Part shown: in pieces, positions 2,324-30,781 of the stretch
How the letters are laid out: each line of letters starts with the position of its first letter
Position numbering within the stretch: the stretch's first letter is position 1
NCBI GenBank assembly: GCA_963662715.1
Contig: OY759724.1
Coordinates: 2,490,001-2,522,000, forward strand
Direction: 5' to 3'
Source: Candidatus Omnitrophota bacterium
GTDB lineage: Bacteria; Omnitrophota; Gorgyraeia; Zapsychrales; JANLHA01
Length of the DNA: 32,000 nt
The notes under the pieces: model-generated
What the model was told of the DNA's origin: nothing
The model's database searches: none
Seen by the model: the letters and a program-made list of their open reading frames with translations, nothing else
Position numbers and translations under genes: made by a program

Positions 2324-4537
2324 ATGATAGATCAATACGTAGATAAAATCTCTAAGGAATTAAATATTATCCCGAAAAAAGTCGGGGCAACCATTGATTT
2401 GCTGGACGGAGGATCGACCGTCCCGTTCATTGCCCGTTACCGGAAAGAGGTTACCGGCAGCCTGGACGAAGCGCAGATTAAGAATATCCGGGACCGGCTG
2501 CATCAGTTGAGGGAACTGGATAAAAGGCGCGCGGCTATTTTGGCTTCTCTCGAGGAGCGGGATAAACTGACCGATGAACTCAAGGCCAAGATTCTCGCCG
2601 CTGAAACACTAGCGGTTTTGGAAGATATTTACCTCCCTTACCGGCCGAAACGCCGCACCAGGGCCACGGTCGCCAAAGAAAAAGGCCTGGAGCCGCTGGC
2701 GGAAATTATTTTCAAACAGGAGATCAAGGAGATTGAAAGAGAGGCGGCCAAGTATATCAATGAGGAAATGAAAGTGACGTCCGCAGAGGATGCTCTGGCC
2801 GGGGCCAGGGATATCATCGCGGAATGGATCAATGAAGACGGCGATGCCCGGGCCAAGATGCGGGAGCTTTATTTTGAGAAAGGGGAATTCCGTTCAAGAG
2901 TGATTAAGAAAAGAGAGAGCGAGGCCTCGAATTACAAGGATTACTTTGACTGGCAGGAGCCGGTGAAAACCTGCCCGTCGCACCGGGTTCTCGCTGTCCG
3001 GAGGGCCGAGAAAGAACAGTTTGTCACCCTGAGGATTGTGGTTCCGGAAGAGGAAGCGGTTCATATCCTTGTCCATCAATTCATTAAAGGGGACGGGCCG
3101 GCCTCCGAGCAGGTGCGGTTGGCCATTCAGGACGGATTCAAGCGCTTATTGTCGCTCTCCATGGAGACGGAAGTCCGCGTTGAGACGAAAGAACGGGCGG
3201 ATAAAGATGCCATCACGGTTTTTGCGGACAATCTGCGTCAGCTGCTGATGGACCCTCCGTTAGGGCACCGCAATGTCATGGCCGTCGATCCGGCTTACAG
3301 AACAGGCTGCAAGATCGCCTGCCTTAACCATGAAGGAAGACTGGTGCAGAAAGAAACGATCTTTCCTTTAGGCAGCGAACTGCAGCAGCAGGAAAGCGTG
3401 ACAACTATTAAAGATTTATGCGATATGCATCATATTGAATTTATCGCCATAGGAAACGGGACCGCCTGCCGTGAAACCGAGGATTTTATCCGCAGTCTCG
3501 ATTTGCCCGATGATATTCAGATCCTTATCGTCTCCGAAGCGGGTGCGTCCATCTATTCGGCTTCGGACCTGGCCAGAAAAGAATTCCCTGACCTGGACGT
3601 TACGATCCGCGGCGCGATTTCCATCGGGCGCCGTCTCATGGACCCTTTGGCGGAGCTTGTGAAGATTGACCCGAAAAGTATCGGTGTCGGACAATATCAG
3701 CATGACGTCGATCAGACCATGCTGAAACAGAGCCTCGATGACGTTGTTATCAGCTGCGTGAACCAGGTGGGGGTCGAGCTGAACAGCGCCAGTAAACAGT
3801 TATTAACCTACGTCTCGGGCTTGGGGCCGGTGCGCGCCAAAGCGATTATTGAATACCGGGAGAAACACGGCCTTTTTAAAAGCCGGGAACAGTTATACGA
3901 AGTGCCGCGGCTCGGCCCGAAAGCTATAGAGCAGGCGGCGGGATTTTTAAGGATACGGGACGGGATCAATCCTCTGGACTCCAGCGCCGTTCATCCGGAA
4001 AGTTATTCTGTCGTTGATGCCATGGCCCGTGATCTGGGCGTCCGTGTGCAGGAAATTATGCGCAGCGAGGAACTCCGGCAGCGTATTCAGCTGGAGAAAT
4101 ATGTCTCGGATATCATCGGGATGCCGACTTTGGAAGATATTTATGAAGAATTGGCGAAGCCGGGACGGGACCCGCGCAGGCAGTTTGAAATCATCCGGTT
4201 TAAGGAAGGGGTGCAGAAACCGGAGGATTTGACCCCGGGCATGAAGCTCCCCGGGGTGGTGACGAACATAACGCATTTCGGCGTGTTCGTCGATATCGGC
4301 GTGCATTTAGACGGTCTCGTGCACGTCAGCCAGCTGTCGGATAAATATATCAAGGACCCGCGCGATTTTGTGACGCTTCATCAGCATGTCGAGGTGACCG
4401 TTATGCAGGTTGATCTGGACCGGAAACGGATCGCTTTGACCATGAAAGCCAACCCCGACATCTATTTCGGCCAGCCGAAGAAGAAAGCTGAGAAAGCCAA
4501 GGACAAAACAAAAGCCAAGGCTAAAGCGGGAAAATAA
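2324..4537 (+). CDS. tex: Tex-like transcription accessory protein (S1 RNA-binding domain)
   Basis: 737 aa. N-terminal motif STVPFIARYRKE, a YqgF/RuvC-like central region, HhH motifs and a C-terminal S1 domain (GVVTNITHFGVFVDIG), ending in a Lys-rich tail. Confidence 0.92.
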   Translation: MIDQYVDKISKELNIIPKKVGATIDLLDGGSTVPFIARYRKEVTGSLDEAQIKNIRDRLHQLRELDKRRAAILASLEERDKLTDELKAKILAAETLAVLEDIYLPYRPKRRTRATVAKEKGLEPLAEIIFKQEIKEIEREAAKYINEEMKVTSAEDALAGARDIIAEWINEDGDARAKMRELYFEKGEFRSRVIKKRESEASNYKDYFDWQEPVKTCPSHRVLAVRRAEKEQFVTLRIVVPEEEAVHILVHQFIKGDGPASEQVRLAIQDGFKRLLSLSMETEVRVETKERADKDAITVFADNLRQLLMDPPLGHRNVMAVDPAYRTGCKIACLNHEGRLVQKETIFPLGSELQQQESVTTIKDLCDMHHIEFIAIGNGTACRETEDFIRSLDLPDDIQILIVSEAGASIYSASDLARKEFPDLDVTIRGAISIGRRLMDPLAELVKIDPKSIGVGQYQHDVDQTMLKQSLDDVVISCVNQVGVELNSASKQLLTYVSGLGPVRAKAIIEYREKHGLFKSREQLYEVPRLGPKAIEQAAGFLRIRDGINPLDSSAVHPESYSVVDAMARDLGVRVQEIMRSEELRQRIQLEKYVSDIIGMPTLEDIYEELAKPGRDPRRQFEIIRFKEGVQKPEDLTPGMKLPGVVTNITHFGVFVDIGVHLDGLVHVSQLSDKYIKDPRDFVTLHQHVEVTVMQVDLDRKRIALTMKANPDIYFGQPKKKAEKAKDKTKAKAKAGK

Positions 4538-4685: not shown

Positions 4686-5705
4686 ATGAAAAGAAAATCT
4701 CTTATATTCCGTTTTTTTATCTTTACGGTTCTGCTCTGCGGACTCCTTGGCCTGACCCTGCCGCTTTTTGCCCAGAGTATCGCCATCTCCCAGCCTTTTT
4801 CTTCTGCGTCATCCGCGCCCATTGTGAACAAAGACGCGGCCCGCGCCAGTTCGATCTTTTCCGCAAGACTGCTGCAGTTAAAAGTGATCGAAACACTGTT
4901 GTTGATCATGATCGCTTATGTGATCCTTATCTCTCTCGTCGGTATTATTAATAAGCGGATCCGGGATATCCGCGCCCGGCACATCGCCCGCAAGAACACG
5001 ATTTACATTATCCATTTTTTGCTTCTTATCAGCATCGTTATTATCTGGCTGCAGAATATCAACTACATTACGATCATTCTGGGGTTTGCCAGTGCGGGGA
5101 TTGCCTTGGCCCTGCAGGAAGTGATTCTTTGTGTGGCTGGCTGGGTTTTCATTATCAGCCGTCGGCCTTTCGAGACAGGGGACCGGGTGGAAATCAACGG
5201 CATCCGCGGGGACGTCATTGATATCCGCATCATGCAGACATCTTTATTAGAGGTCGGCAACTGGGTGGAGGCTGATCAAAGCACCGGCCGGATCGTGAAC
5301 ATTCCCAACAGCAGCGTTTTTAAGACGGCGAATTTCAACTATAACCGCGGTTTCGAATTTATATGGAACGAAATTCCGATCCTGGTGACTTTTGAAAGCG
5401 ATTGGAAACGGGCCCGGGATATTATGATGACCCATGCCAAGAAACTGGTTGAAGGGTCTACAAACGAAGTGCAGCGCAAGATTGAAATCATGAAGAACCG
5501 GTACATGATCTATTACGGGAAACTGACGCCGATTGTTTATGTGACCATCCAGGACAGCGGAGTCCTTTTGACGTTGCGTTACCTCACCGAAGCCAAGAGA
5601 CGCCGGTCGACTCAAGATCAATTGAGCCAGGCTATTTTGGAGGATTTTGCCCTGGATCCCAGTGTGAATTTTGCCTATCCGACATACCGGATTGTTAAGA
5701 CATAA
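4686..5705 (+). CDS. mechanosensitive ion channel family protein (MscS-like)
   Basis: Signal/TM N-terminus, three TM helices, then an MscS beta-domain signature (PFETGDRVEINGIRGDVIDIRIMQTSLLE...IVNIPNS). Confidence 0.85.
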   Translation: MKRKSLIFRFFIFTVLLCGLLGLTLPLFAQSIAISQPFSSASSAPIVNKDAARASSIFSARLLQLKVIETLLLIMIAYVILISLVGIINKRIRDIRARHIARKNTIYIIHFLLLISIVIIWLQNINYITIILGFASAGIALALQEVILCVAGWVFIISRRPFETGDRVEINGIRGDVIDIRIMQTSLLEVGNWVEADQSTGRIVNIPNSSVFKTANFNYNRGFEFIWNEIPILVTFESDWKRARDIMMTHAKKLVEGSTNEVQRKIEIMKNRYMIYYGKLTPIVYVTIQDSGVLLTLRYLTEAKRRRSTQDQLSQAILEDFALDPSVNFAYPTYRIVKT

Positions 5706-9313: not shown

Positions 9314-9389
9314 TCCCCTGTAGCTCAGCTGGTAGAGCGGTTGGCTGTTAACCAATAGGTCCGAGGTTCGAGTCCTCGCGGGGGAGCCA
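9314..9389 (+). tRNA. tRNA-Asn (anticodon GTT), CCA encoded
   Basis: The 7-bp acceptor stem pairs TCCCCTG with CGGGGGA. The D-arm is GCTCAGCTGGTAGAGC, the anticodon loop CTGTTAA and the T-arm CGAGG-TTCGAGT-CCTCG. The discriminator is G, followed by CCA. Confidence 0.9.
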
Positions 9390-11010: not shown

Positions 11011-12417
11011 ATGGGCTTTATAATTTATTTAAAAAAGATATTCAGTAATAAAACGATAGCGAAGTCTACTTTTGAACATAAGAAGGCAGGTACGAATGCA
11101 TCTAAAAAAATTGTCAATAAGACCACTCCGCTTCATAAAGCTGCTAACGACGGTTATCGTACGCGGATTACACAGCTTATTAAGGCAGGAGCGAATGTTA
11201 ACGCATTAGACGAGAAGGGGCGAACGCCTTTAGATCTTGCAATACAAAATTATCGTAAAAGGGCGATAAAGAAATTAAAAGAAGCTGGAGCAAAAGAAGG
11301 CATCGAGTTATTCAAGAAAAAAAATGACAAGTCCAAACTTCCCCCTAAAACATCGGTTCAAAATCAGCTTGGAGCATCAGGTCAAAATTTGCCCACTGAA
11401 TCTAAAAAATCCGAGATGCAATATTTTGAAGTTGGTAGAAATAATTCAGATGAGGGTGGTTATTGTTCGGATGACGCGTGCCCTTGTCATCCGGAGACTC
11501 CCATTCCAGTGGGACAAGGGTATCTTTACATTGATCCTGAATTAGTTGCATTTCGTCGCAATTATCCGTCAGAAGCATCTGCCAATCAAGAGATGTTGCG
11601 CCGTGTTGAGGATTTACGACGCAATAATCCGATTTATAAAAACGCACGGATGACTTGTTCAATCAAACCTGTGCTTGTCTGTGAGCAAGGAGCCAGACTG
11701 CGTAAGCTTAATTTAAAAATAGCCGCAGATGATGCACGGCATTGGTGGAAAACCGGGAAGGTTCCATTACGGCCCACACCTCTTGCTGATGGCAGTGTGC
11801 CTGATGTCGGTTCAGACACATACTTTAGACCGGATAAGTTTGCCGGGATAATAAATATGTCTATTTTAAGCCATACAGTTAGCTCAGACCACGTTCCGGT
11901 GGGCAGTACGTCTGTGATTTATAAAACGACTAAAGAGCATCTTAATCGTATCAGATCTGACATGCCGGAAATAAGTATGCAGACGATTTTTAACGAAATT
12001 GAACAGTGTGTGCTTGATAATGCCTCAGCGATTGAGGCGATGGTCCAAAAAACCATATCAGATGGTGAGCTTCATACAAAGGTGCTGGGGGGAGGGAACA
12101 CGTCAATGTTCTTGATCGTGTCCTCTTTGCCGAAAAGAATGCACGAATCTGCTGCTTTTTTTGCCGCTAAGTATCCCCCGGGTTTTGGAGGTTATTTAAA
12201 CTTTTGGCTCAACTCAGAAGTGATCTGGAAGATGAAGGGTTTAGGCCATTCTGTCATGGCCCATCTTCTTGTTTATAACGATTGTGCCGTTAGTGTAGGG
12301 GTCATCCCTCTAGATCACAAAAATTTAGACACCTGCCCACGGGGCGTGCTTCCGGAGGACTCTCTTACCAAAGAAGATCGACGACTAATGGGATTAGATA
12401 AAGTTAGGATAATATAA
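11011..12417 (+). CDS. ankyrin-repeat protein with a Cys-containing C-terminal domain of unknown function
   Basis: ANK motif TPLHKAANDGYRTRITQLIKAGANVNALDEKGRTPLDLA. The remaining ~350 aa has no motif I recognise. Confidence 0.75.
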   Translation: MGFIIYLKKIFSNKTIAKSTFEHKKAGTNASKKIVNKTTPLHKAANDGYRTRITQLIKAGANVNALDEKGRTPLDLAIQNYRKRAIKKLKEAGAKEGIELFKKKNDKSKLPPKTSVQNQLGASGQNLPTESKKSEMQYFEVGRNNSDEGGYCSDDACPCHPETPIPVGQGYLYIDPELVAFRRNYPSEASANQEMLRRVEDLRRNNPIYKNARMTCSIKPVLVCEQGARLRKLNLKIAADDARHWWKTGKVPLRPTPLADGSVPDVGSDTYFRPDKFAGIINMSILSHTVSSDHVPVGSTSVIYKTTKEHLNRIRSDMPEISMQTIFNEIEQCVLDNASAIEAMVQKTISDGELHTKVLGGGNTSMFLIVSSLPKRMHESAAFFAAKYPPGFGGYLNFWLNSEVIWKMKGLGHSVMAHLLVYNDCAVSVGVIPLDHKNLDTCPRGVLPEDSLTKEDRRLMGLDKVRII

Positions 12418-14073: not shown

Positions 14074-15154
14074 GTGAAAAAGGCTAAAATTAATACTTTC
14101 CGAATATCTGCATTTATTTCGATTGCATCTATTTTTTTTGCTGGGTGCGTATCTGTATCCAAGATTCATCAAGCAATTAGCGCTGATAACGCGGCAGAAG
14201 TCCGAAGAATTATTACTGATGATGAGAACGCTGTTAATGCAATTGATCAGCAAGGGAATACTCCTTTGCATGTGGCATCGGTACGTGGTGATTCGGAAAT
14301 AGTTGAGTTGCTTATCAAGAAGGGAGCCCTTATTGATGCTGTTAATACGGCTGGCCGTACTCCTTTGATGGCTGCCATTCTTTCAGGTAAGACATCTGTA
14401 GCCAACGTTCTAGTTGCAAAGGGAGCAAACGTAAATGCCAGAGATCGTCAAGGATGGACTCCGGTTCTTTTGGCAGCACAGGAAGGCACATATGAACTTT
14501 TAAAAATGCTTGTTGATGCCGGAGGAAATGTTTTTAATAAGAATAATGAGATGGTGACAGCTCTTCATGTCGCCAGCTTAAAAGGGAATGAGGAATTTGT
14601 CCATTTTTTTTATAGGAAAAGAAGTTAATGTCGATAGTGTCACGTTGCAAGGGCTTACTCCATTACATTTTGCAGTTATGAATGATCATATTTCTGTTGC
14701 TGAAATATTAATAGAAAAAGGAGCAACACCAAAATTTGCTGCATCCAATGTTTATATCACAATCAAGACCCATTTAATTTTTGCCGAATATTATAGGAAG
14801 TATTGGGATTGCGACAAGGCCGTTCATCATCTTTCTACGGCCATTAAATATCATGATGAACACAATGATTCTCAGAACATCGTGAAGTCTTTAACTGAGC
14901 TGAGGTTATGGAGATTGCAATGTTTAGCGCCTATTCTTTTTCCAATTGCTTACCTAGATGGATGCATGTCTGGGCATATCCCTCAATTGGAGAATCAATG
15001 GGAGACAGAAATCCGGAATATTGAGGCTGAACAGCTGAAACTCGTAGATAGTATTGAAGAAACTAGAAATAAACTTTTTTGTTATGAGCAATCAGATAAA
15101 CGAAACGAGATTGAAGAATGTATGGGAGAGATAGATAATCCTCTCTTTCCTTAG
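14074..15154 (+). pseudogene. ankyrin-repeat lipoprotein gene interrupted by a +1 frameshift in a T8 tract
   Basis: GTG start and lipobox FFAGC. ANK repeats continue across the two listed ORFs (14074-14628 and 14588-15154). Removing one T from T8 (14604-14611) gives the continuous reading ...GNEEFVHFFIGKEVNVDSVTLQGLTPLHFAV... Confidence 0.8.
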
Positions 15155-19279: not shown

Positions 19280-20500
19280 ATGTGGGAATGTCCTGATTGC
19301 AACACTACTAATTGGGATTCTGATTCAAAATGTCATCAATGTGGTTGCGACCTTTCTAATAAAGAAAAGTTAGCTAAAGTTTCTTCTCAGAAGATTAAAA
19401 GTCCTAGAGCGGATAAGCGTTCAAATTGGAAATATGCATTAGTCCATTTACTTTTAACCCCAGCGCTTTTTGTCTTAAGCATATTAATACTTAGTTTTCT
19501 TAGGGTTCCTGATGATGCATCTGTCTATTATTGTCTCTTGATTATCGGAGGCTATCCGATTGCGAAGCTTATCGGCTTTAATCCTATGTACATAGCCCTG
19601 CCGATATTTTGGCTCTATAGATATTCAGGCATGTATATATCATTTAAGGGAATGGCCTATATTGTGTTCGTGCCTTCTTATGTATCAGTTCAAGTCCATA
19701 CTCTGCTGTTGCTCATTCCAGATATGTATAAAAATTGCGTTTCTTGGCTCAAAGCTATAAAATGGCCGCTTCGCATCCTAACTGTTCTCTCTACTATCGT
19801 CATTATTTTAGGTGCCATTTCCTGGATGACAAACTGGTTCCGCCAGGGATCTTTCGATTATTATGCGAGTTCGTCTGGAGAGGACCGCATAAGATACGCT
19901 ATCGCATACAAGCGGCTTGATTTGCTGAAGAAAAGTATTAGGCACGGCATGGAGTTGGAGGACTATCTGATGTGGAAAGCCGGTTATCAGGAGAAAAACG
20001 AGAAAATTCTTGAATTTTTGATCAACAGCGGCCTGTCAGTGAATGCGGTAACCGGTTCAGGAGAAACAGCCCTTCATTCGGCAGCAGAAAGTGGAGAGGT
20101 AGAAAATATTCGGTTTCTAATAAGCCATGGTGCTGATCCTAACATTAGAGATGACGCAGGTCAGACGCCACTTCATCAAATAGTTCTTTCGGATTATATT
20201 CCAGATGAAAAGGTTGCTGAGATAATACAAATCCTAGTTGACGGTGGAGCAGATGTCAATGCTGTTACGAAACCGAACATTCATTCGGCTTACAAAAATT
20301 GGAGTGGAGGAGATATGCCTCTTCATTATGCGGTTAAGCAAAGAAAAAATTTTAAGAAAGAGCCCTATCCTCCAAAAGTTCGATCCGTTGCTACTCTTCT
20401 AGAACTGGGTGCTGACGTAAATGCCAAAAACAGCGATGGTCGTACGCCATTGGAGATTGCTACTAATGAGGAAATTAAGAAAATTCTTTTGGAACATTAA
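19280..20500 (+). CDS. zinc-ribbon / multi-TM / ankyrin-repeat protein
   Basis: GAAGGAGG SD. N-terminal CPDC-x10-CHQC, about 5 hydrophobic helices and C-terminal ANK repeats (GETALHSAAESGEVENIRFLISHGADPNIRDDAGQTPLH...). Confidence 0.8.
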   Translation: MWECPDCNTTNWDSDSKCHQCGCDLSNKEKLAKVSSQKIKSPRADKRSNWKYALVHLLLTPALFVLSILILSFLRVPDDASVYYCLLIIGGYPIAKLIGFNPMYIALPIFWLYRYSGMYISFKGMAYIVFVPSYVSVQVHTLLLLIPDMYKNCVSWLKAIKWPLRILTVLSTIVIILGAISWMTNWFRQGSFDYYASSSGEDRIRYAIAYKRLDLLKKSIRHGMELEDYLMWKAGYQEKNEKILEFLINSGLSVNAVTGSGETALHSAAESGEVENIRFLISHGADPNIRDDAGQTPLHQIVLSDYIPDEKVAEIIQILVDGGADVNAVTKPNIHSAYKNWSGGDMPLHYAVKQRKNFKKEPYPPKVRSVATLLELGADVNAKNSDGRTPLEIATNEEIKKILLEH

Positions 20501-20847: not shown

Positions 20848-20865
20848 AAAAGATTCTACGTCTAT

Positions 20866-20899
20866 CCAGTTGCAAAATTCATTTACTAGGGGGAGCCAT
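20866..20899 (+). repeat. degenerate tRNA-Asn 3'-end remnant (copy b)
   Basis: CCAGTTGCAAAATTCAT...GGGGGAGCCAT. The last 11 nt are identical to 9380-9390, and the first 17 nt are identical to 25217-25233. Confidence 0.65.
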
Positions 20900-21118
20900 A
20901 TAAAAAGGGACGCCTTTTAGGCGTCCCTTTTTATATGCTTGCTCTGCGTAACGAGATACCCAGAGAGCGAAGCGAGCGGTTCTGACCGAGCCCGCCAACA
21001 TGCGAAGCGTTCAAGAGGGCGAGGAAATGGTGGCGAGTTGGAACGAGCCACCAGAGTCCTCGCGACCGAGCATGGCGAGGGAGTGCCAACAGTCAGAGGA
21101 CTGTGGCCGGGGGAGTTA
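20890..21118. repeat. 229-nt structured repeat, copy A
   Basis: Identical to 23187-23415 except at 20947 (C vs T) and 20985 (A vs C). Contains a hairpin terminator, GCGAAGC motifs and a split tRNA-Asn 3' end. Confidence 0.9.
20902..20932. terminator. bidirectional hairpin terminator inside repeat A (also present at 23199-23229 in repeat B)
   Basis: AAAAA-GGGACGCC-TTTTA-GGCGTCCC-TTTTT. Confidence 0.7.
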
Positions 21119-21126
21119 TATAACAT

Positions 21127-21165
21127 AACCCGTTGTGAACAAGTTGTTTGCAACGGGTTTTTTTT
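21127..21165 (+). terminator. intrinsic terminator just after repeat A
   Basis: AACCCGTTG (21127-21135) pairs with CAACGGGTT (21151-21159), followed by a T-run. Confidence 0.65.
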
Positions 21166-21171
21166 GCTTGT

Positions 21172-21200
21172 TTGACGATTTTAAGGGTATGTGATAGACT
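21172..21200 (+). promoter_or_regulatory. sigma70-like promoter of the leuA leader
   Basis: TTGACG (21172-21177), a 17-nt spacer, then TAGACT (21195-21200). Confidence 0.5.
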
Positions 21201-21224
21201 TATACCACTATGCAAGATTATTCA

Positions 21225-21275
21225 ATGAAGTTAAACAACCTACTTCTCGGACTACTCCTATCTTTATTGAGATAG
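21225..21275 (+). CDS. candidate Leu-rich leader peptide MKLNNLLLGLLLSLLR
   Basis: 9 of 16 codons are Leu (TTA, CTA, CTT, CTC, CTA, CTC, CTA, TTA, TTG). It sits in the 5' arm of a long hairpin upstream of a terminator and leuA. There is no clear SD. Confidence 0.55.
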   Translation: MKLNNLLLGLLLSLLR

Positions 21276-21332
21276 GCCGTGAGAAGAGGTGTGTTTATTC
21301 ATTGAATAAAAAATAAATAATTAAAAAATGAA

Positions 21333-21369
21333 GCCACCGCTTCTTAATGAGGCAGGTGGCCTTTTTTTT
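21333..21369 (+). terminator. attenuator terminator upstream of leuA
   Basis: GCCACC (21333-21338) pairs with GGTGGC (21355-21360), followed by C and T8 (21362-21369). Confidence 0.7.
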
Positions 21370-21428
21370 GAATAGTCGACCACCTTAATCTTTAGGAAGT
21401 AGTGGTGTCAAAAGAAAGGTGGTGTATT

Positions 21429-23099
21429 ATGAAAAAAGTTGAAATGCCATTCAAGCGTTATCGCCCATATCCGCAAGTAAATCTTTTTGACCGCGAATGG
21501 CCAAATAAGACAATCGTAAAAGCTCCGATTTGGTGCAGTATTGACCTGAGGGATGGTAATCAGGCTTTGAGCAACCCAATGAATGTTGATGAAAAAATAA
21601 TAATGTTTGAGCTTCTTGTAGAAATCGGATTTAAGGAAATTGAAGTTGGTTTTCCTTCTGCGTCTGATGTTGAATATCAGTTTATCAGGAGACTTATCGA
21701 AGAAGAACGAATACCTGATGATGTTACGATTCAAGTGCTGACACAAGCCCGTGAACATTTAATAAGAAGAACTTTTGATTCCGTGCGGGACGCCCAAAAA
21801 GCAATCATTCACTTATATAATTCCACTTCAACAGTGCAAAGGGAAATTGTCTTTAGAAAAAATAAAGAGGAAATAAAAAGTATTGCCATAAACGGAACAA
21901 AGTTAATAAAGGAATTAACTGATGCAGAAAAGAATGATGGCATACGCTTTGAGTACACACCTGAAAGTTTCCCAGGGACAGAGTTGGATTATGCCTTGGA
22001 AGTTTGCTCTGCGGTAATGGATGTGTGGGGTCCATCACCTGACAATAAAATAATCATAAATTTGCCAACAACTGTTGAGATGTCAACGCCCAATATTTAC
22101 GCTGACCGCATTGAATGGTTCTCTCGTCATATTAATAAAAGAGAATCAGTTATTATCAGCGTACATACTCATAACGACAGAGGAACAGGTGTGGCTTCTG
22201 CCGAATTAGCTGTTATGGCAGGAGCTGAGCGTGTCGAAGGAGCTTTATTCGGCAATGGGGAGAGAAGTGGCAATATGGATATTGTCACAATGGCTTTAAA
22301 CCTTTTTAGCCAAGGGGTAAATCCTGAGCTTGATTTCTCGGACATCAATAGAATTGCGGATATTTACAAAAAATGTACAAGAATGGATATTCATCCTCGA
22401 CATCCCTATGTAGGAGAGTTGGTCTATACTGCTTTCTCTGGGTCACATCAAGATGCAATTAACAAAGGAATGAAAAAACAACGAGAAAATGAAAGCAATA
22501 TTTGGGATGTGCCATATCTTCCCATTGACCCCAAGGATGTTGGTCGGACTTATGAGGCCATTATCCGTATAAATAGTCAATCTGGGAAAGGCGGTGTTGC
22601 TTTTGTTTTAGAGAACGATTGGGATTTTAAGATACCCAAAGAGATGCAACCTGAATTTGCTCAGGTTATACAGCGGATGACAGAGAGTGTTAATAGCGAG
22701 TTATCATCGCAAGAAATAAAGAATTGTTTTGAAAAGGAATATATAAAAAGGACAGGACAATTTCAATTAAAATCTTGTGCCATTCATTCTGAAAATGAAA
22801 ACTCTAAAGAAACTATTGTCTGTGCTTTAATAAAAAATGAGCAACAAGAAATAACAATTCGTTCAAAAGGAAATGGTCCTGTTGATGCTTTTGTTTGCGG
22901 CACCAAGAGACATTTCAACATTATTTTCGATGTGGCATATTATTCTGAACATTCCCTTTCGCAAGGAGCCGATGCAGAAGCTGTTGCTTACATCGGGATA
23001 AAAACTGGCGAAAGCAAAATTGTCTTTGGAGTTGGGATTGATGCAAATATTAGCATAGCTTCAATTAAAGCGATTGTGAGTGCTATAAATCGTATGTAA
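21429..23099 (+). CDS. leuA: 2-isopropylmalate synthase, long form
   Basis: MKKVEMPFKRYRPYP...WCSIDLRDGNQAL...EVGFPSAS...HTHNDRGTGVA..., with a C-terminal LeuA allosteric domain. AGGTGG lies upstream of the ATG at 21429. Confidence 0.9.
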   Translation: MKKVEMPFKRYRPYPQVNLFDREWPNKTIVKAPIWCSIDLRDGNQALSNPMNVDEKIIMFELLVEIGFKEIEVGFPSASDVEYQFIRRLIEEERIPDDVTIQVLTQAREHLIRRTFDSVRDAQKAIIHLYNSTSTVQREIVFRKNKEEIKSIAINGTKLIKELTDAEKNDGIRFEYTPESFPGTELDYALEVCSAVMDVWGPSPDNKIIINLPTTVEMSTPNIYADRIEWFSRHINKRESVIISVHTHNDRGTGVASAELAVMAGAERVEGALFGNGERSGNMDIVTMALNLFSQGVNPELDFSDINRIADIYKKCTRMDIHPRHPYVGELVYTAFSGSHQDAINKGMKKQRENESNIWDVPYLPIDPKDVGRTYEAIIRINSQSGKGGVAFVLENDWDFKIPKEMQPEFAQVIQRMTESVNSELSSQEIKNCFEKEYIKRTGQFQLKSCAIHSENENSKETIVCALIKNEQQEITIRSKGNGPVDAFVCGTKRHFNIIFDVAYYSEHSLSQGADAEAVAYIGIKTGESKIVFGVGIDANISIASIKAIVSAINRM

Positions 23100-23165
23100 C
23101 CGCAAAGTCATTGGATAATTTTCTGACTTTGTCTGAGAGACAGTAAGCCCTAAACTCCTCCAAAA

Positions 23166-23196
23166 AGTTGCGAAACGCGTCCTCTTGGGGAGCCAT
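23166..23196 (+). repeat. degenerate tRNA-Asn 3'-end remnant (copy c)
   Basis: AGTTGCGAAACGCGTCCTCTTGGGGAGCCAT retains the GTCCTC and GGGGAGCCA blocks of the tRNA T-arm and acceptor. Confidence 0.55.
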
Positions 23197-23470: not shown

Positions 23471-24253
23471 CTAAACGTCAGGTTTCCAAAATCTCACCAC
23501 TGAAGCCTGGCAGAAGAAATCGAGCTGTTCCATAAAAAGAAATTTGGAATTAAGAAACCAAAGTGGCATTAAGATAGGTAAGGTCATGATACGGATTTTT
23601 CCGGAATGTTTCTTCACAAAGGTCCGCAGTTTTTTCCGCTTCGGGTAAGCATTGCCATTTTCGTCATATAGTTTCGGCGTGAAAAGTGAAATATTAAAAT
23701 GAGGGAAGCAAATATCTGCTTTAAACCCATATTTCTTTCCAAATAAAGCAAGCCCGGTCGGAGTGGGGTTGTTGATATGCCCGGGAGCTATGCTTTCTAC
23801 AAAATCATATTTACAAGTCGAAGATACCCAGAAAAGTCCGTTAGGTTTAAGGACACGGAAAGCTTCACTGAAGATATTTTTATTGATATTTTGAGGAACA
23901 TGCTCATAAACATTATGGCACATAATGAAATCAATGGATGTGTCTTCAATAGGAAGGGGGTCTTTGAGGTTATGCACACGGCTGTCAATCCCGAGGTTTG
24001 CTTTTGACCATTCAACGGCACTCTTTGCCCCTTCCAAAGCAATAACATGCAGGCCGTTTTCCTGGCAGCATTTCGTGAAGAACCCTTCCCCGGCGCCCAG
24101 GTCAAGTCCAGATGCGGAATGTCCGACGTATTTGATGACTTTCTCGACAAGGGCTTGATATGTTTTCCAGCGGTCAGTAGACCAGCCTTTTATCCTCTGT
24201 TCATAATGATCGTCATTTACAATGCCGTCTGCCTGGGCATGGTTGGTTTGCAT
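23471..24253 (-). CDS. class I SAM-dependent methyltransferase
   Basis: Motif I LDLGAGEGFF and a post-I acidic residue (VIALEG), plus a Methyltransf_11/23-like core. Confidence 0.75.
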   Translation of the reverse strand: MQTNHAQADGIVNDDHYEQRIKGWSTDRWKTYQALVEKVIKYVGHSASGLDLGAGEGFFTKCCQENGLHVIALEGAKSAVEWSKANLGIDSRVHNLKDPLPIEDTSIDFIMCHNVYEHVPQNINKNIFSEAFRVLKPNGLFWVSSTCKYDFVESIAPGHINNPTPTGLALFGKKYGFKADICFPHFNISLFTPKLYDENGNAYPKRKKLRTFVKKHSGKIRIMTLPILMPLWFLNSKFLFMEQLDFFCQASVVRFWKPDV

Positions 24254-24544: not shown

Positions 24545-25060
24545 ATGAAAATAATAGATTTAGGATGTGGTCGGAGTAAAGTCCCCGGGACGATTGGAAT
24601 TGATATGGACCCGGAATCTGATGCAGATATCATTCTCGATATTGATAAGGAGCCTATACCTTTAGAAGATAATTCTGTTGATAAAGTAAGATCATCCCAA
24701 TTCTTTGAGCATTTGGAAGATCCTTTCCGTGTCTTGAGAGAAATATATCGGATTTTAAGGCCAGGTGGTGAAATTTTTATAGAAGTTCCTCATTACACAT
24801 CACACATCGCACATGGTTTTGGTCATAGGCAGTATTACTCTCATAAAGAACTCGTACGTATGCTAACATACGAAATTAGCTGTGAGATTGTAAAAGCGGA
24901 AATTACTTTTTATAAATCTTTTAGAATGGCAGGGATTCATTATCTTGCCAATAAGTTTCCTACAAATTATGAGCGTTTCTGGGCATATATTCTTCCGGCG
25001 GAAAATATAAAGATAACCGGTAGAGTTAAAAAAGATGTGCGAGCAGAGAAAGGTAAATGA
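24545..25060 (+). CDS. small class I SAM-dependent methyltransferase
   Basis: IIDLGCGRSK...GIDMD...FEHLEDPFRVLREIYRILRPGGEIFIEVP. Confidence 0.75.
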   Translation: MKIIDLGCGRSKVPGTIGIDMDPESDADIILDIDKEPIPLEDNSVDKVRSSQFFEHLEDPFRVLREIYRILRPGGEIFIEVPHYTSHIAHGFGHRQYYSHKELVRMLTYEISCEIVKAEITFYKSFRMAGIHYLANKFPTNYERFWAYILPAENIKITGRVKKDVRAEKGK

Positions 25061-25385: not shown

Positions 25386-26177
25386 TTAAGCAAGGATTTT
25401 TTTGTGTAGATCGAGTTCTTTGTTAATCCATCTTTTGTAAAACTCTTCAGGCGTAGCGAAGAATAATGCCTGATGAGGGAAATCGGTGTTGTAATCGTTG
25501 ATCCAACGCTTGAAGTCATCTTGAAGATCAAATGGGTTGTCCCATTCATTGATCCAAATGAAATCTTCTTTGATTCTGCGGATGACGCGTTCGGTGTCAG
25601 CATTGCCTTTGGGGTTGGACCAGGTTGAGAAGATCTGCTTGATGCCGGCCAGTGAACAATTAAGCCTGAAGCGCCCGCTGGTGGGCTGACAGCCATTGTC
25701 CGAGATCAGGTGCAGGTCATGATTCAGTGTGTCTTTGATGCCGTTTGGGAATCGGTTGTTGATGGCCATTTCCAGGGCATCCAGCCAGTCATCAGTCTTT
25801 GACTGGATGTTGAGGCTATAGCCGATAATTTCTTTGGTATACCAGTCTAGGACGATGGTCAGATAGAACCAGCCCCAGGTCGCCAGTTTGATTTTTGTCA
25901 TATCGATACCCCAGAATTGATTGGGGTGAGAAGCTCGTGGTTTCCGGCGGAGGTTGCCACGCTTGGCCTTCAAGCGATCGTTGGGTTGAACCGTTAATTG
26001 ATTTTCTTGCATGAGGCGTTGGACACAATTTTTGCCAATTTTGTAATGTTTACGGTTGTTTAAATAGGCCCAGACTGAACGGTATCCCCAGAGGGGATGT
26101 TGCTTTTTAATTTGTCGGATTTTGACTAAATGTTTTTGGTCTTGTTCGATACGCTTTAGAGAACGGCGTCTTTTCAT
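25386..26177 (-). CDS. IS3-family transposase OrfB (DDE/rve integrase core)
   Basis: FWGIDMTK (D), LISDNGCQ (D) and NADTERVIRRIKEDF (E). Probably expressed as an OrfAB fusion by a -1 frameshift. Confidence 0.85.
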   Translation of the reverse strand: MKRRRSLKRIEQDQKHLVKIRQIKKQHPLWGYRSVWAYLNNRKHYKIGKNCVQRLMQENQLTVQPNDRLKAKRGNLRRKPRASHPNQFWGIDMTKIKLATWGWFYLTIVLDWYTKEIIGYSLNIQSKTDDWLDALEMAINNRFPNGIKDTLNHDLHLISDNGCQPTSGRFRLNCSLAGIKQIFSTWSNPKGNADTERVIRRIKEDFIWINEWDNPFDLQDDFKRWINDYNTDFPHQALFFATPEEFYKRWINKELDLHKKILA

Positions 26178-26479
26178 AACTCGTACTCGTTTTTTTTTAG
26201 TTCAACGGTCAAGTCGCCGATGATGCGTTTGAGTTTGGCGTTTTCTTTTTCAAGACGTTGCTCTTTCTGGGACTGTTGTTTGATGTCAAAGGCCATATGG
26301 CATTCTTTGAGGAACTGGTCGCGCCATTTGTAATATTGGGTTTGGCCAATTTGGTATTTGTTACAAAGTTTACTGATGTCGATTTTCCCGCTGAGGCCTT
26401 CAAGCACGATTTGGGTCTTTTGTTGGCTGGTCCATTGGCGTTTTTTCATGGGAATTGGGCTCCTTTCCTTGGAACTCAA
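26174..26479 (-). CDS. IS3-family transposase OrfA (HTH plus leucine zipper)
   Basis: WTSQQKTQIVLE...YYKWRDQF plus a coiled-coil region. The slippery CTA AAA AAA AAC lies near the 3' end (minus strand, about 26190-26201). Confidence 0.85.
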   Translation of the reverse strand: MSSKERSPIPMKKRQWTSQQKTQIVLEGLSGKIDISKLCNKYQIGQTQYYKWRDQFLKECHMAFDIKQQSQKEQRLEKENAKLKRIIGDLTVELKKNEYEL

Positions 26480-28011: not shown

Positions 28012-28190
28012 ATTTTGAAAAATATATTCGCAAACTTTAGTAAACCTGTAATGATTTAAATAATTTACTTTGTAATTATTTTAGAGTATTATATTTTTAT
28101 CCTAAATTAATAAAATATTCCATGGTCTTTCAATGGGAGGAGCGATCTGTCTTTCCTTTGAGCCGTTTCATCCTGAGTAAATGTGCGAAC

Positions 28191-29867
28191 ATGAACTGTG
28201 TCATTTTCCAACCCCACGTTAGTGCATCCCGCTGGTTTAATAAAATCGTGATTCTTGTCATATCTTTCTGCCTCGGTGGCTGTGCAAGCTTTCCCTTGCA
28301 TACAGCGATCCGTCAGCAGGACCGAAACCGGGCTAAAGAGTTAATCAACCGGAAAAGAGGGCTTAATGACTTCAACGAGCAAGGGCTTTTGCCGATTCAT
28401 TTGGCGGCAAAAGCAGATGAGGTCGAATTGGTCAAGGTCATGCTGAACGCTGGTGTAGACATTGACGCGCGCGCTAATGATCTGGCAAAAAACGTAACCC
28501 CCTTATTTGAAGCGACGGCGGCCGGGCATACACGGATGATAGAGTTCCTGCTCAAAAATGGGGCCATTCCTGACCTGGCAACAAGCGATGGCTTGACACC
28601 AGTCATGCGTGCCGCACAAGACGGTAATATCAGTGCCCTCCAGGTTCTCTGCAGAAATAAGGCCGATCTTGATCTGCAGTTACCCAATGGGTATACGTCA
28701 TTGATGCTTGCCATACAGCACCGGCATTCACGGTGTATCCAAGAGCTTCTTGAAAACGGCGCTGATCCTGACATTTTGAATGCTGACGGCAGATCAGCTT
28801 TGTGGCTTAGTATAAAAGAAGATGAAAGTGATGTTGTTGAAATGTTGGCAAAGAACAAAGTGGATATAAACAGTATTAATAGTGGGATGGTCCCGCTTAT
28901 ACAGGCGTTTTCAGATGGAAACATAAAAATAGTAGAAACATTGATCAGGCTCGGGGCGGATGTCAATGTGCAAAGCAGTGAAGGGTGGACTCCACTGGGA
29001 TGGGCGGCGCTGAATGGAAAACCACGCTTGGTTGAATTATTGCTGCAACACGGCGCAGACATCGATGGCGCGGATATTTCCGGTCAAACTCCGCTGTATC
29101 TGGCGGCAATACAGAATAATGCCGAAGTGGTTCTTATCTTGGTCGAAAACGGAGCGGACATTAAGGCAAAGACGGATGAAAATACGACGGTTTTACACGC
29201 AGCTGCTCTGGGGGAACATCCGGATATGATTGATTTCTTTTTGAGGCTAGGACTACGCCCTCAAGTGGTTACTGGCGGGGCTGAAGATGCCTATGCAACG
29301 GCTTTGGCATATAAGCGTTATGGGCAATTAAATCTGAAAAATGGTGATACTGCCGGGGGCAGGGAAGCGTATGAAACGGCAGCTGAACAATTTTCACTCG
29401 CGGCCGGGAAGTATTCCGAACTGATTCAGGAGTATGCCCAAAAAATTCAATCAAAAAAGATGAAAGAATTTTTGGCAAAAACGGCCCTTGTTCTGGCCCA
29501 GGGGGTTGTCTATGCAGCTCAGTCGTACCAGGCTGCAAGCAATTACAAAAGTTATTCTGAGGTAGCCGCTTTAAAACAGGCATCGTCAAACGGATCTGGC
29601 GTATCCGGATATTATAGTGCCTTAAATGCCTACCGGGAGGCCTATGTCCCGGTGTCCCATACGACGGGAGGTTTCCCATCTACCATTAAGTCAGGGACCG
29701 GCGATATAAGACTGTTCACTGCTGCAAAAAACAGGTGCAACCTGCGGGCCGTAACAAGTGCCGGCTATGCACAAGAATGTTTAAGGGCCACGGAATGCTT
29801 TGCCGGAAACGATATGGCAACAGAAATTCTGGAGTGTATTCAACACGCGGAAAGAAAAAATCTTTGA
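28191..29867 (+). CDS. large ankyrin-repeat lipoprotein with an Ala/Tyr-rich helical C-terminal domain
   Basis: The ATG at 28191 gives MNCVIF...ILVISFCLGGCAS (lipobox). About 10 ANK repeats are followed by ~190 non-ANK residues. Confidence 0.8.
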   Translation: MNCVIFQPHVSASRWFNKIVILVISFCLGGCASFPLHTAIRQQDRNRAKELINRKRGLNDFNEQGLLPIHLAAKADEVELVKVMLNAGVDIDARANDLAKNVTPLFEATAAGHTRMIEFLLKNGAIPDLATSDGLTPVMRAAQDGNISALQVLCRNKADLDLQLPNGYTSLMLAIQHRHSRCIQELLENGADPDILNADGRSALWLSIKEDESDVVEMLAKNKVDINSINSGMVPLIQAFSDGNIKIVETLIRLGADVNVQSSEGWTPLGWAALNGKPRLVELLLQHGADIDGADISGQTPLYLAAIQNNAEVVLILVENGADIKAKTDENTTVLHAAALGEHPDMIDFFLRLGLRPQVVTGGAEDAYATALAYKRYGQLNLKNGDTAGGREAYETAAEQFSLAAGKYSELIQEYAQKIQSKKMKEFLAKTALVLAQGVVYAAQSYQAASNYKSYSEVAALKQASSNGSGVSGYYSALNAYREAYVPVSHTTGGFPSTIKSGTGDIRLFTAAKNRCNLRAVTSAGYAQECLRATECFAGNDMATEILECIQHAERKNL

Positions 29868-29881
29868 AAGGGGGGAGTAAA

Positions 29882-30781
29882 ATGAATTTTTCGCATCTGC
29901 GAAACGCTCTTGTGGTTTTGGGGGTGATTTTATTGAGCGGGTGTGCCGGTGCTTTGCACACGGCTGCCAAGCAAAATGACGTGCCCCGGGCTAAAATGTT
30001 AATCGAGAGCGGCGTTCAGGTTGACTGCCGGGCAAAGTGGAAAAATGAAACTCCTTTACAAATGGCGGCGGAAGCGGGGAATACAGAGGTAGTGAAATTC
30101 CTGATAGATGCTGGAGCTGACGTAAATGCGGGAGGATACAATAATTTTACCGTCTTGCACAGTGCCATTACCAGCGGAAACGAAGATGTCGTCCGTCTGC
30201 TCCTAGAAAATGGCGCCAATGTCAACGCGGTTACCGATGAGGAGTATGCTCCGATTCATCATGCGGCCTATCATGGCAATGCAAACATTATACGCTTGTT
30301 GATCAATTATGGTGCTGATCTTACACTGAAAGACAGGTGGATTAATAATATGACCCCTTATGAACTGGCATCTGTCAGGAACCATGATAGCGTCGTTCTT
30401 AATCTTTTAAGGATTGAAGATCAGAAGGCTTCTGCTGCATCTGCCGGGATGGATGTCAACCCAGAGTCTATAGCCTCAGAGATGTCTGAGAAAAAATATG
30501 CGGTGGATGAACGCCGTCCGTATGTCGTTCTTGCGGCTGAAAGGGGACAGTACAAAGTTTTGCAGGGGCTTATTGAAAATGGCGTCGATGTGAATACAGT
30601 CTTACCCGACGGCTCTACCGCTTTGATGCTTGCGGCGAAGAGAGGTCATGATGATATCGTGAAATTGCTCCTGCGACATGGCGCTGATGTCAACGTTGAG
30701 CGTAATGATGGAGAGAATGCCATGTCTCTGGCGGCAAGTGAGGAGATTCGAGAAATCTTAAGAAGTTTTGGTGCTCAATAA
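29882..30781 (+). CDS. ankyrin-repeat lipoprotein
   Basis: GGGGGGAG SD. MNFSHLRNALVVLGVILLSGCAG carries a lipobox. ANK repeats fall in two blocks. Confidence 0.8.
   Translation: MNFSHLRNALVVLGVILLSGCAGALHTAAKQNDVPRAKMLIESGVQVDCRAKWKNETPLQMAAEAGNTEVVKFLIDAGADVNAGGYNNFTVLHSAITSGNEDVVRLLLENGANVNAVTDEEYAPIHHAAYHGNANIIRLLINYGADLTLKDRWINNMTPYELASVRNHDSVVLNLLRIEDQKASAASAGMDVNPESIASEMSEKKYAVDERRPYVVLAAERGQYKVLQGLIENGVDVNTVLPDGSTALMLAAKRGHDDIVKLLLRHGADVNVERNDGENAMSLAASEEIREILRSFGAQ

Follow-up and report, generated by a model that had tools for sequence, protein, structure and literature searches.

Does the short, leucine-rich open reading frame (ORF) that precedes a leuA gene of Candidatus Omnitrophota serve to adjust the expression of that gene to the supply of leucine? 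The locus lies in a window of 32,000 nucleotides (assembly GCA_963662715.1, contig OY759724.1, positions 2,490,001 to 2,522,000), which is the whole stretch of DNA analysed here and whose own numbering is used throughout; the features described are on its forward strand unless said otherwise. The gene, at 21429–23099, encodes a 2-isopropylmalate synthase of 556 aa, of the long "yeast/actinobacterial" type (assigned by Pfam and TIGR00970), and is monocistronic. An earlier note on this DNA, made from the letters alone, had read the leader ahead of it as a classical attenuator with the alternative pairings 1:2, 2:3 and 3:4. We think that it is highly probable that the element is indeed a leucine-responsive, ribosome-mediated transcription attenuator of leuA, a prediction drawn from sequence comparison and RNA folding models.

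The leader starts behind a candidate sigma-70-type promoter (21172–21200) that had already been pointed out, formed by the -35 hexamer TTGACG (21172–21177), a 17-nt spacer and the -10 hexamer TAGACT (21195–21200), with a TG at 21192–21193. A scan for promoter-like consensus sites found 3 of them when 2.9 were expected from shuffles, so that the match in the window alone is not above chance and the promoter call rests on positional conservation in relatives: TTGACR-(about 17)-TAnAnT stands at the same place in 16 of 16 family members from outside Chlorobi. The ORF that the earlier note had read from 21225 to 21275 is MKLNNLLLGLLLSLLR, with nine Leu codons of five types, as it had counted. The start that it had given to this ORF had to be revised, since the position of ATG 21225 is taken by Ile, Val, Gln or Thr in the loci L002, L003, L011, L083, L005 and L059, whereas an in-frame ATG at 21210, five codons upstream, does not vary among the 17 sequences of alignment A4. 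Judging by this alignment, the conserved leader start is ATG 21210 and not 21225. The leader ORF (21210–21275), called on the invariant ATG and the Leu run, comprises 21 codons plus a UAG stop (21273–21275) and would encode the peptide MQDYSMKLNNLLLGLLLSLLR.

Besides being conserved, ATG 21210 is located 8 nt outside the basal stem of the long hairpin described below and 9 nt past the -10 hexamer, without a Shine-Dalgarno (SD) sequence. Two caveats had been attached to the former start codon; the lack of an SD stands, and is explained by a probably leaderless start, while the burial of the ATG inside the stem does not apply to 21210. Since the same geometry, with 6–9 nt from the -10 box to the leader ATG and no purine-rich SD, recurs in all 16 non-Chlorobi members, the mRNA from which the leader ORF is translated is probably leaderless, or nearly so. 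In Chlorobiaceae loci (e.g., L035, L052, L087), a conserved ATTTTTTTATTTTT-like element is found about 45–55 nt 5' of the leader ATG, at the site of the sigma-70-type promoter of the non-Chlorobi members. This element may be the Chlorobi promoter, which would give a 5' untranslated region of about 30–40 nt, and the leaders there would then not be leaderless.

The leucine codons (TTA twice, CTA three times, CTT once, CTC twice and TTG once) are placed at 21231–21233, 21240–21248, 21252–21260 and 21264–21269, with up to 8 Leu in 10 consecutive codons; no more than 6 were obtained in any of 5000 dinucleotide-preserving shuffles, a value attained 13 times. Five of the nine are CUA (three) or CUC (two), the two rarest Leu codons in the genes of the window (2.6% and 9.1%, respectively), and CUG, the commonest one (24%), is absent. 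Rare CUA codons are also used in the leu leader of Escherichia coli. The choice of codons is partly constrained by pairing, given that CUUCUC pairs with GAGAAG and CUCCUAUCU with AGAUAGG. Translation is further suggested by comparison of 43 leaders, every one of which has an ATG-initiated, stop-terminated ORF across the Leu run. The share of leucine in them is 31% over all residues, 67% in the core 10-mers and 91% when the hydrophobic residues of the core alone are counted, and all six Leu codons (CUN, UUR) interchange at aligned positions with leucine itself being kept.

The RNA is highly structured. The minimum-energy fold of 21205–21430 has −77.2 kcal/mol (z = −8.1), no shuffle out of 200 being as stable, and it gives three hairpins, at 21218–21309, 21333–21360 and 21372–21430. 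Folding of the leader thus produced the alternative structures much as the earlier note had drawn them: the 12-bp basal stem of the long hairpin (21218–21229 with 21298–21309), the CUUCUC/GAGAAG stem and the inner hairpin all appear in the minimum-energy fold, the terminator is present at 21333–21369, and 21281–21291 can form 10 of 11 pairs with 21335–21345, including one G-U. Region 1 (21218–21249), delimited by the fold and by covariation, is the 5' arm of the long hairpin and holds codons 4–14 with the first Leu triplet. The inner hairpin CCUAUCUU/GAGAUAGG (21257–21276; 21257–21264 pairing with 21269–21276) sits at the tip of 1:2 and contains the last Leu codons and the UAG stop. Region 2 (21280–21309) is the 3' arm, and its segment 21280–21291, UGAGAAGAGGUG, provides the antiterminator strand. 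In free RNA its partner is region 1, and masking of the Leu codons lets it pair with 21335–21346. After an A-rich linker (21310–21332), unpaired in the minimum-energy fold and of varying length in relatives, comes region 3 (21333–21346), which the alternative pairings make both the 5' arm of the terminator and the antiterminator partner of region 2. Region 4 supplies the 3' arm (21349–21360), followed by C and U8 up to 21369, and fold and covariation place the termination point of the attenuator there (21349–21369).

The GCCACC/GGTGGC core of the terminator lengthens to 11 bp, and the terminator lies 60–68 nt 5' of the leuA start. Energies in the window follow the classical order, with −38.2 kcal/mol for 1:2, −17.8 kcal/mol for 3:4 and about −15 kcal/mol (−14.7 to −15.4) for 2:3. 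The 2:3 pairing and the terminator both need 21335–21345 and are mutually exclusive, and the Leu codons lie within 1:2.

In order to see how widely this layout occurs, 80 loci from genomes and 80 from metagenomes were collected with LeuA as the query, and closer relatives (85–75% identity) were obtained by protein search and contig look-ups; the metagenome scan contained no relative closer than those from the genome scan. The count of Leu-rich upstream ORFs, defined as ATG-initiated ORFs of 10–45 codons in which some stretch of 10 codons contains 4 or more Leu, covered 135 non-redundant orthologous leuA loci for which 250 nt or more of upstream sequence was available. Such ORFs were found in 119 of the loci, usually 170–250 nt 5' of leuA, and in 98 of those 119 a terminator (a T-run preceded by a hairpin of −8 kcal/mol or better) lies between the ORF and leuA. 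The conservation check that the earlier note had proposed thus came out in its favour, for the Leu-rich ORF and for the 2:3 pairing alike. Two covariance models were built, R1 from the 7 closest sequences and R2 from 17 sequences. R2 scored 96–131 bits at other Omnitrophota-type loci and 69.5 bits at a metagenome-assembled genome (MAG) of Elusimicrobia; its best score in Chlorobiaceae was 50.2 bits (E 1.6e-7). Because the matches of R1 and R2 are confined to the plus-strand position just upstream of leuA, the leaders of these loci are, by this reasoning from model matches, homologous and not merely analogous.

The Elusimicrobia MAG (L041 / L103; 120–268 and 744–852) shows a particular arrangement, with the homologous leader about 580 nt 5' of leuA instead of the usual distance of about 60 nt. 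Only short ORFs of 30–48 aa occupy the gap, and a perfect 47-nt tandem duplication (2.3 copies) takes in the ribosome-binding site (RBS) and ATG of leuA.

The alignments used include A4 with 17 sequences, A5 with 43 sequences and A2, a structure-blind MAFFT alignment. In A5, the 1:2 helix, inner hairpin and terminator are 87.8% paired and 40 of 48 pairs change on both sides (248 cells), pair counts that are inflated by the fitting of A4, A5 and A8 to the 1:2/3:4 structure; none of 500 shuffles reaches any of the five measures, and slid controls are 42–51% paired. Taken separately over the 43 sequences, helix 1 is 82% paired (24/29 pairs covarying) and the inner hairpin 94% (8/8), and the terminator, at 98.9% (8/11) and with its U-tract kept, is the best-conserved helix of the leader. 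RNAalifold run on A2 gives independent predictions of the same terminator and inner hairpin and of the upper part of 1:2.

The 2:3 helix needs a different treatment. A fixed-column count on A2 gave no excess over shuffles for it; its internal loop is 1x1 in the group of the window and 1x2 elsewhere, so that the helix cannot be counted in fixed columns. The window forms GAGAAG-A-GGUG with CACC-G-CUUCUU, L084 forms GAAGAG-A-GGUG with CACC-AA-CUCUUC, and the Chlorobiaceae form AAGGGG-A-GGUG with CGCC-AG-CCUCUU. A 2:3 duplex of −11 to −23 kcal/mol is predicted in every member shown. Cognate duplexes have a mean of −15.08 compared to −13.13 for non-cognate ones, a value that none of 5000 permutations reached, and shuffled region 2 gives −10.5. 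In a register restricted to Chlorobiaceae, 2:3 is 87.4% paired versus 42–72% in slid controls.

The switch itself was simulated with nascent RNA extending to the terminator loop, masking the nucleotides up to 11 nt past the Leu codon in the A site. In the free nascent RNA of the window 1:2 forms and 0 of 10 2:3 pairs are made; with the ribosome masked at any Leu codon of codons 11–20 all 10 are made, and with the ribosome at the stop codon the 2:3 register is lost. Stalling at Leu codons pairs the 5' arm of the terminator with region 2 in 42 of the 43 members, and 2:3 is seen with the ribosome at the stop codon in 7 of 43. The folds, the covariation and this masked-ribosome switch in the window and its relatives agree in supporting the classical layout, and from them we infer ribosome stalling and a response to leucine in vivo.

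The mechanism that we propose would tie leuA expression to charged tRNA-Leu. The transcript, we infer, would start a few nucleotides before AUG 21210, and the ribosome would translate the 21-codon leader, probably with neither 5' leader nor SD. When leucine is plentiful, the ribosome would pass the nine Leu codons to UAG 21273 and leave, or no ribosome would load; region 1 (21218–21249) would then pair with region 2 (21280–21309), region 3 (21333–21346) would be left to region 4 (21349–21360), and 3:4 with U8 would halt RNA polymerase at about 21362–21369. When leucine is scarce, the ribosome would stall at the Leu codons of 21240–21269 and keep region 1 open, so that region 2 could take region 3 once it is made; the terminator would be blocked and the polymerase would enter leuA. 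The position of the stop codon suggests how the OFF state is reached. In the window the stop is 5–6 nt before region 2, and in this group the OFF state would thus rely on ribosome release and refolding of 1:2. The Chlorobiaceae ORF runs through region 2, where a terminating ribosome would cover it.

Several observations weigh against such a mechanism. When the full leader is folded at equilibrium the terminator always wins, masked ribosome included. The decision must therefore be kinetic, as in known attenuators, and a switch of this kind cannot be judged by equilibrium folding, which was for that reason replaced by folding of a transcript that ends before region 4. For 12 of the 43 members, 2:3 is present in the minimum-energy fold of the RNA even without a ribosome. 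Moreover, a ribosome at the stop covers region 2 incompletely in the window and its closest relatives ("at stop" 8–10), the covariation of 2:3 within Chlorobiaceae alone is modest, and the pair counts of the structure-fitted alignments are inflated as stated above. Leaderless initiation in Omnitrophota is an assumption. Finally, opening the RBS of leuA costs about 14–15 kcal/mol, which the classical model does not explain.

This last point brings in another explanation, namely that the leader acts mainly on translation, with translation of, or stalling on, the upstream ORF (uORF) exposing or hiding the leuA SD and the terminator being secondary or constitutive. The third hairpin of the minimum-energy fold (21372–21430), which the earlier note had not listed, pairs an anti-SD ACCACCUU (21378–21385) with the SD AAGGUGGU (21417–21424); its U-tract pairs with AUGAAAAAAG, and the start codon of leuA is buried as well. 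Of the 8 other closest relatives that were folded, 7 also have the 12 nt around the SD mostly paired, with no more than 2 of them free, and freeing region 4 lowers the opening cost of the RBS in L001 (10.0 to 1.3 kcal/mol), L165, L002, L168 and L005. Control at the level of translation has been proposed for the actinobacterial LEU element, which, at the same type of leuA, joins a Leu-coding uORF and SD pairing without a terminator (PMC1262725), and the loci L143–L160 have LLLPR-type uORFs with no terminator. In the window, however, freeing region 4 barely matters (14.9 to 14.2 kcal/mol). Covariation of the SD hairpin is weak (2/11 pairs), with a weak consensus hairpin over the 8 closest sequences and no structure in a consensus fold of the terminator-to-leuA spacer over 12 sequences, and the high conservation of the terminator would be hard to understand if it were unused. 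We consider this explanation improbable as an alternative; it is easier to accept as a layer that may come on top of attenuation. The two further proposals have in our opinion even less in their favour. One is that the small ORF makes a functional hydrophobic peptide, membrane-active or similar to a type I toxin, or that the terminated RNA of about 160 nt is a trans-acting small RNA (sRNA), its adjacency to leuA being incidental. The peptide is short and hydrophobic, weak sub-threshold matches to Rfam sRNAs and antitoxins exist (ohsC with 23.4 bits versus a gathering score of 50, and others), and attenuator RNAs and leader peptides of Sinorhizobium can act in trans (PMC6614838, PMC7298713). 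Against this, the element was found in no position other than directly ahead of leuA, over more than 100 loci of several phyla, and all Rfam matches are far under threshold. The hydrophobic residues are overwhelmingly Leu and not a mixture, their run of about 10–12 residues is broken by Gly and Ser, and the alternative pairings would be given no role. This makes the proposal very hard to sustain, although a trans function on top of attenuation is possible.

The other proposal dispenses with the ribosome as the trigger, in favour of a T-box-like contact with uncharged tRNA-Leu, a leucine-binding riboswitch, or stabilisation of 1:2 or 2:3 by an RNA-binding protein. Leucine genes of Firmicutes are often controlled by T-boxes, and the strong structure of the RNA would fit. 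Nevertheless, no cis-regulatory Rfam family was matched in the leader region at E up to 10, or in the window and six relatives at the gathering score. Translation is indicated by several features (an invariant ATG, a reading frame closed by an in-frame stop, and synonymous turnover of Leu codons), and the most conserved single-stranded features are codons and not a ligand pocket. We therefore give this proposal very little credence, and attenuation by a stalled ribosome is the reading that we retain.

Within this attenuation reading, the hairpin at the RBS may still add translational control of leuA in read-through RNA, as suggested by the folding models. Its loop carries a conserved purine motif, AGGAAGUAGUGGUG at 21394–21407 in the window and UUUAAGGAGCCGUUGGCG in relatives, which by eye looks like region 4, the 3' arm of the terminator, and shows complementarity both to region 3 and to the Leu codons. 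In a relay model, region 4 freed in the antiterminated RNA would capture the anti-SD and open the RBS; the opening costs lend this support in some relatives, but the small change of opening cost in the window leaves the relay unsupported there. A more ambitious joint hypothesis can be formulated, in which an uncatalogued RNA/peptide family across Omnitrophota, Chlorobiaceae, Elusimicrobia and FCPU426 has a leaderless Leu uORF driving a six-segment relay (OFF, 1:2 / 3:4 / 5:6; ON, 2:3 / 4:5), with the cassette moving horizontally. We regard it as doubtful in its entirety. If it were true, OFF would mean a terminated transcript and any read-through RNA closed at the RBS, ON would mean read-through with an open RBS, and one stalled ribosome would set both transcription and translation of leuA. 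In this joint hypothesis the cassette needs no dedicated regulator and would thus move between lineages.

How new is such a leader? For Proteobacteria, control by leader-peptide attenuation is textbook knowledge, and examples are also documented from Actinobacteria and from some Firmicutes. According to one survey, which itself then added Firmicutes, it had so far been shown only in Proteobacteria and Actinobacteria (PMC2965389). The literature searched gave no account of this leader for Omnitrophota or Chlorobiaceae, and an earlier prediction in Chlorobi is possible. The predicted mechanism is ordinary and no surprise to a specialist; the leader itself is, according to our searches, uncatalogued and outside the Rfam families, and it represents a family that several little-studied phyla have in common. 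We think that there is practical use in it, as a covariance model of the R2 type could annotate the leader in hundreds of MAGs, flagging a small ORF that gene callers miss and marking leuA as leucine-regulated in uncultured lineages. Moreover, the geometry with 6–9 nt between promoter and ATG predicts leaderless translation outside Actinobacteria, and the foreign composition of the cassette, described next, illustrates a regulator-free RNA switch travelling with its gene.

The leuA cassette is compositionally foreign to this genome. The GC content at third codon positions (GC3) of leuA is 0.31, compared with 0.57–0.63 for tex, dnaX, recR and mscS. Right after a tRNA-Asn(GTT) gene (9314–9389) the GC content falls from about 50% to about 39%, and GC3 falls from about 0.6 to 0.28–0.40 (9400–32000). 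No integrase or island boundary was identified in the low-GC stretch 9400–32000. The closest named relatives of LeuA are also from Omnitrophota, so that leuA is not foreign to the phylum, and the Tex protein of the window (2324–4537) is 87% identical to a protein of a 'Candidatus Omnitrophica' MAG, its further named matches being from Omnitrophica/Omnitrophota, which places the host in this phylum. In relatives, the composition of leuA tracks that of its flanks. Thus, the description of leuA as island-borne in the earlier note agrees with composition, while no island boundary is defined and the nearest named relatives of LeuA come from the phylum of the host.

The cassette is well delimited. 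Homology with the 85%-identical locus L161 spans only 21125–23189, a stretch that takes in the upstream terminator, the promoter, the leader and leuA and ends about 90 nt after the gene, which makes the cassette a self-contained unit. The upstream intrinsic terminator (21127–21165), a hairpin of 15 pairs with a T-run found by a terminator scan, would insulate the cassette, and it is kept with it in L161 and L168, where homology to the window starts at 21125 and 21111, respectively. As for the gene, the LeuA protein contains the Pfam domains HMGL-like, IPMS_D2 and LeuA_dimer and scores 760.8 bits against TIGR00970, with a cut-off of 697.4. Its start at ATG 21429 fits the full-length alignment to homologues. 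An N-terminal extension from GTG 21402 or 21405 was rejected, since homologues align from residue 1 at ATG 21429 and L161 has, by eye, an in-frame TAA and no start codon there.

Upstream of the cassette, the segment 20900–21125 is GC-rich with short GCGAAGCG/GGCGAG-like repeats, and is located between a bidirectional terminator-like hairpin (20904–20932) and the upstream terminator of the cassette. It is absent from the otherwise homologous L161 and contains only mechanical 78-aa ORFs on both strands. The low-GC stretch, of at least 20 kb, includes at least seven ankyrin-repeat ORFs, among them 11011–12417, 14074–14628, 14588–15154, 19280–20500, 28122–29867 and 29735–30781; the overlapping pair 14074–14628 and 14588–15154 may be one frameshifted gene. 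Downstream of leuA, at a distance of 2.3 kb, an IS3-type insertion sequence is found on the minus strand (25386–26479), formed by an orfB with HTH_21 and rve domains (25386–26177) and an overlapping upstream ORF (26174–26479). A methyltransferase ORF of 171 aa (24545–25060, plus strand) matches only the C-terminal half of the Methyltransf_11 profile and may be a truncated copy of a neighbouring gene type, noted alongside 23471–24253 (minus strand). A different neighbourhood, absent from the window, recurs in relatives: L001 has a fluoride riboswitch (5425–5490, 51.9 bits), and L164 (12626–13407) and L166 (3986–4731) have crcB and DUF190 genes a few kb downstream of leuA.

In Rfam, only a tRNA was found in the window at the gathering score and no leader family in six relatives, and at E up to 10 the region 20850–21500 gave 37 sub-threshold matches of chance level with no RF00512, RF01743 or RF00230 among them; the leucine-operon leader model, whose use the earlier note had advised, thus failed to recognise this leader. 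Its likeness to the enterobacterial leuL (RF00512) lies in the design: a short leader ORF, a Leu run with rare CUA and a 1:2 / 2:3 / 3:4 layout with an intrinsic terminator before the first leucine-biosynthesis gene, leucine being sensed by stalling (predicted in the window). These features of the E. coli leu leader are established knowledge. The window leader differs from leuL in showing no detectable homology in sequence or structure, in having nine Leu codons (two triplets plus extras) instead of four in a row, in its ORF without SD at 9 nt from the -10 box, and in the extra SD-sequestering hairpin after the terminator. Furthermore, it controls, according to our prediction, a monocistronic leuA of the long TIGR00970 type, whereas leuL controls leuABCD. 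With E. coli trpL it shares the four-segment logic and a terminator more stable than the antiterminator, which leads to a kinetic decision. The amino acid sensed differs, and so does the coverage of region 2 by a ribosome at the stop, which is achieved in trpL and only partly in the window; the Chlorobiaceae members, with the stop after region 2, are like trpL in this respect.

The Firmicutes systems, such as the Lactococcus leu/phe leader (RF01743), the attenuator peptide of the ilv-leu operon in Staphylococcus aureus (PMC5794164) and the T-box (RF00230), resemble the window in controlling branched-chain genes at the RNA level by premature termination in response to leucine, although the T-box senses tRNA directly, without translation. 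In Actinobacteria, the LEU element (Seliverstov et al. 2005) consists of a Leu uORF and SD pairing with no obvious terminator, and has been depicted as a pseudoknot in which the Leu codons and the SD form the base stem (PMC1262725). In Corynebacterium glutamicum, leuA has a leader peptide (PMC3890552), cg4015, with four consecutive Leu codons (PMC4046766), and the leader peptide of ilvBNC is reported, in a citation of Morbach 2000 within PMC4046766, to be formed without a ribosome-binding site. Like the LEU element, the window has a Leu-rich uORF before a long TIGR00970-type leuA, whose SD takes part in RNA pairing. It differs in its canonical terminator and 2:3 antiterminator and in the partner of the SD, which is 21378–21385 and not the Leu codons; no fold computed for the window pairs Leu codons with the leuA SD. 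The high-GC metagenome loci L143–L160 have uORFs ending in LLLPR, LLLP or ALPR about 130–170 nt 5' of leuA and no intrinsic terminator, and their leaders look like the LEU-element type rather than the terminator type; they were not matched by R1, nor by R2, which was run on part of them. Homology between the leader type of the window and the LEU-element type is possible. The actinobacterial leuA leaders, which precede the same type of leuA, are the nearest biological relatives of the leader described here.

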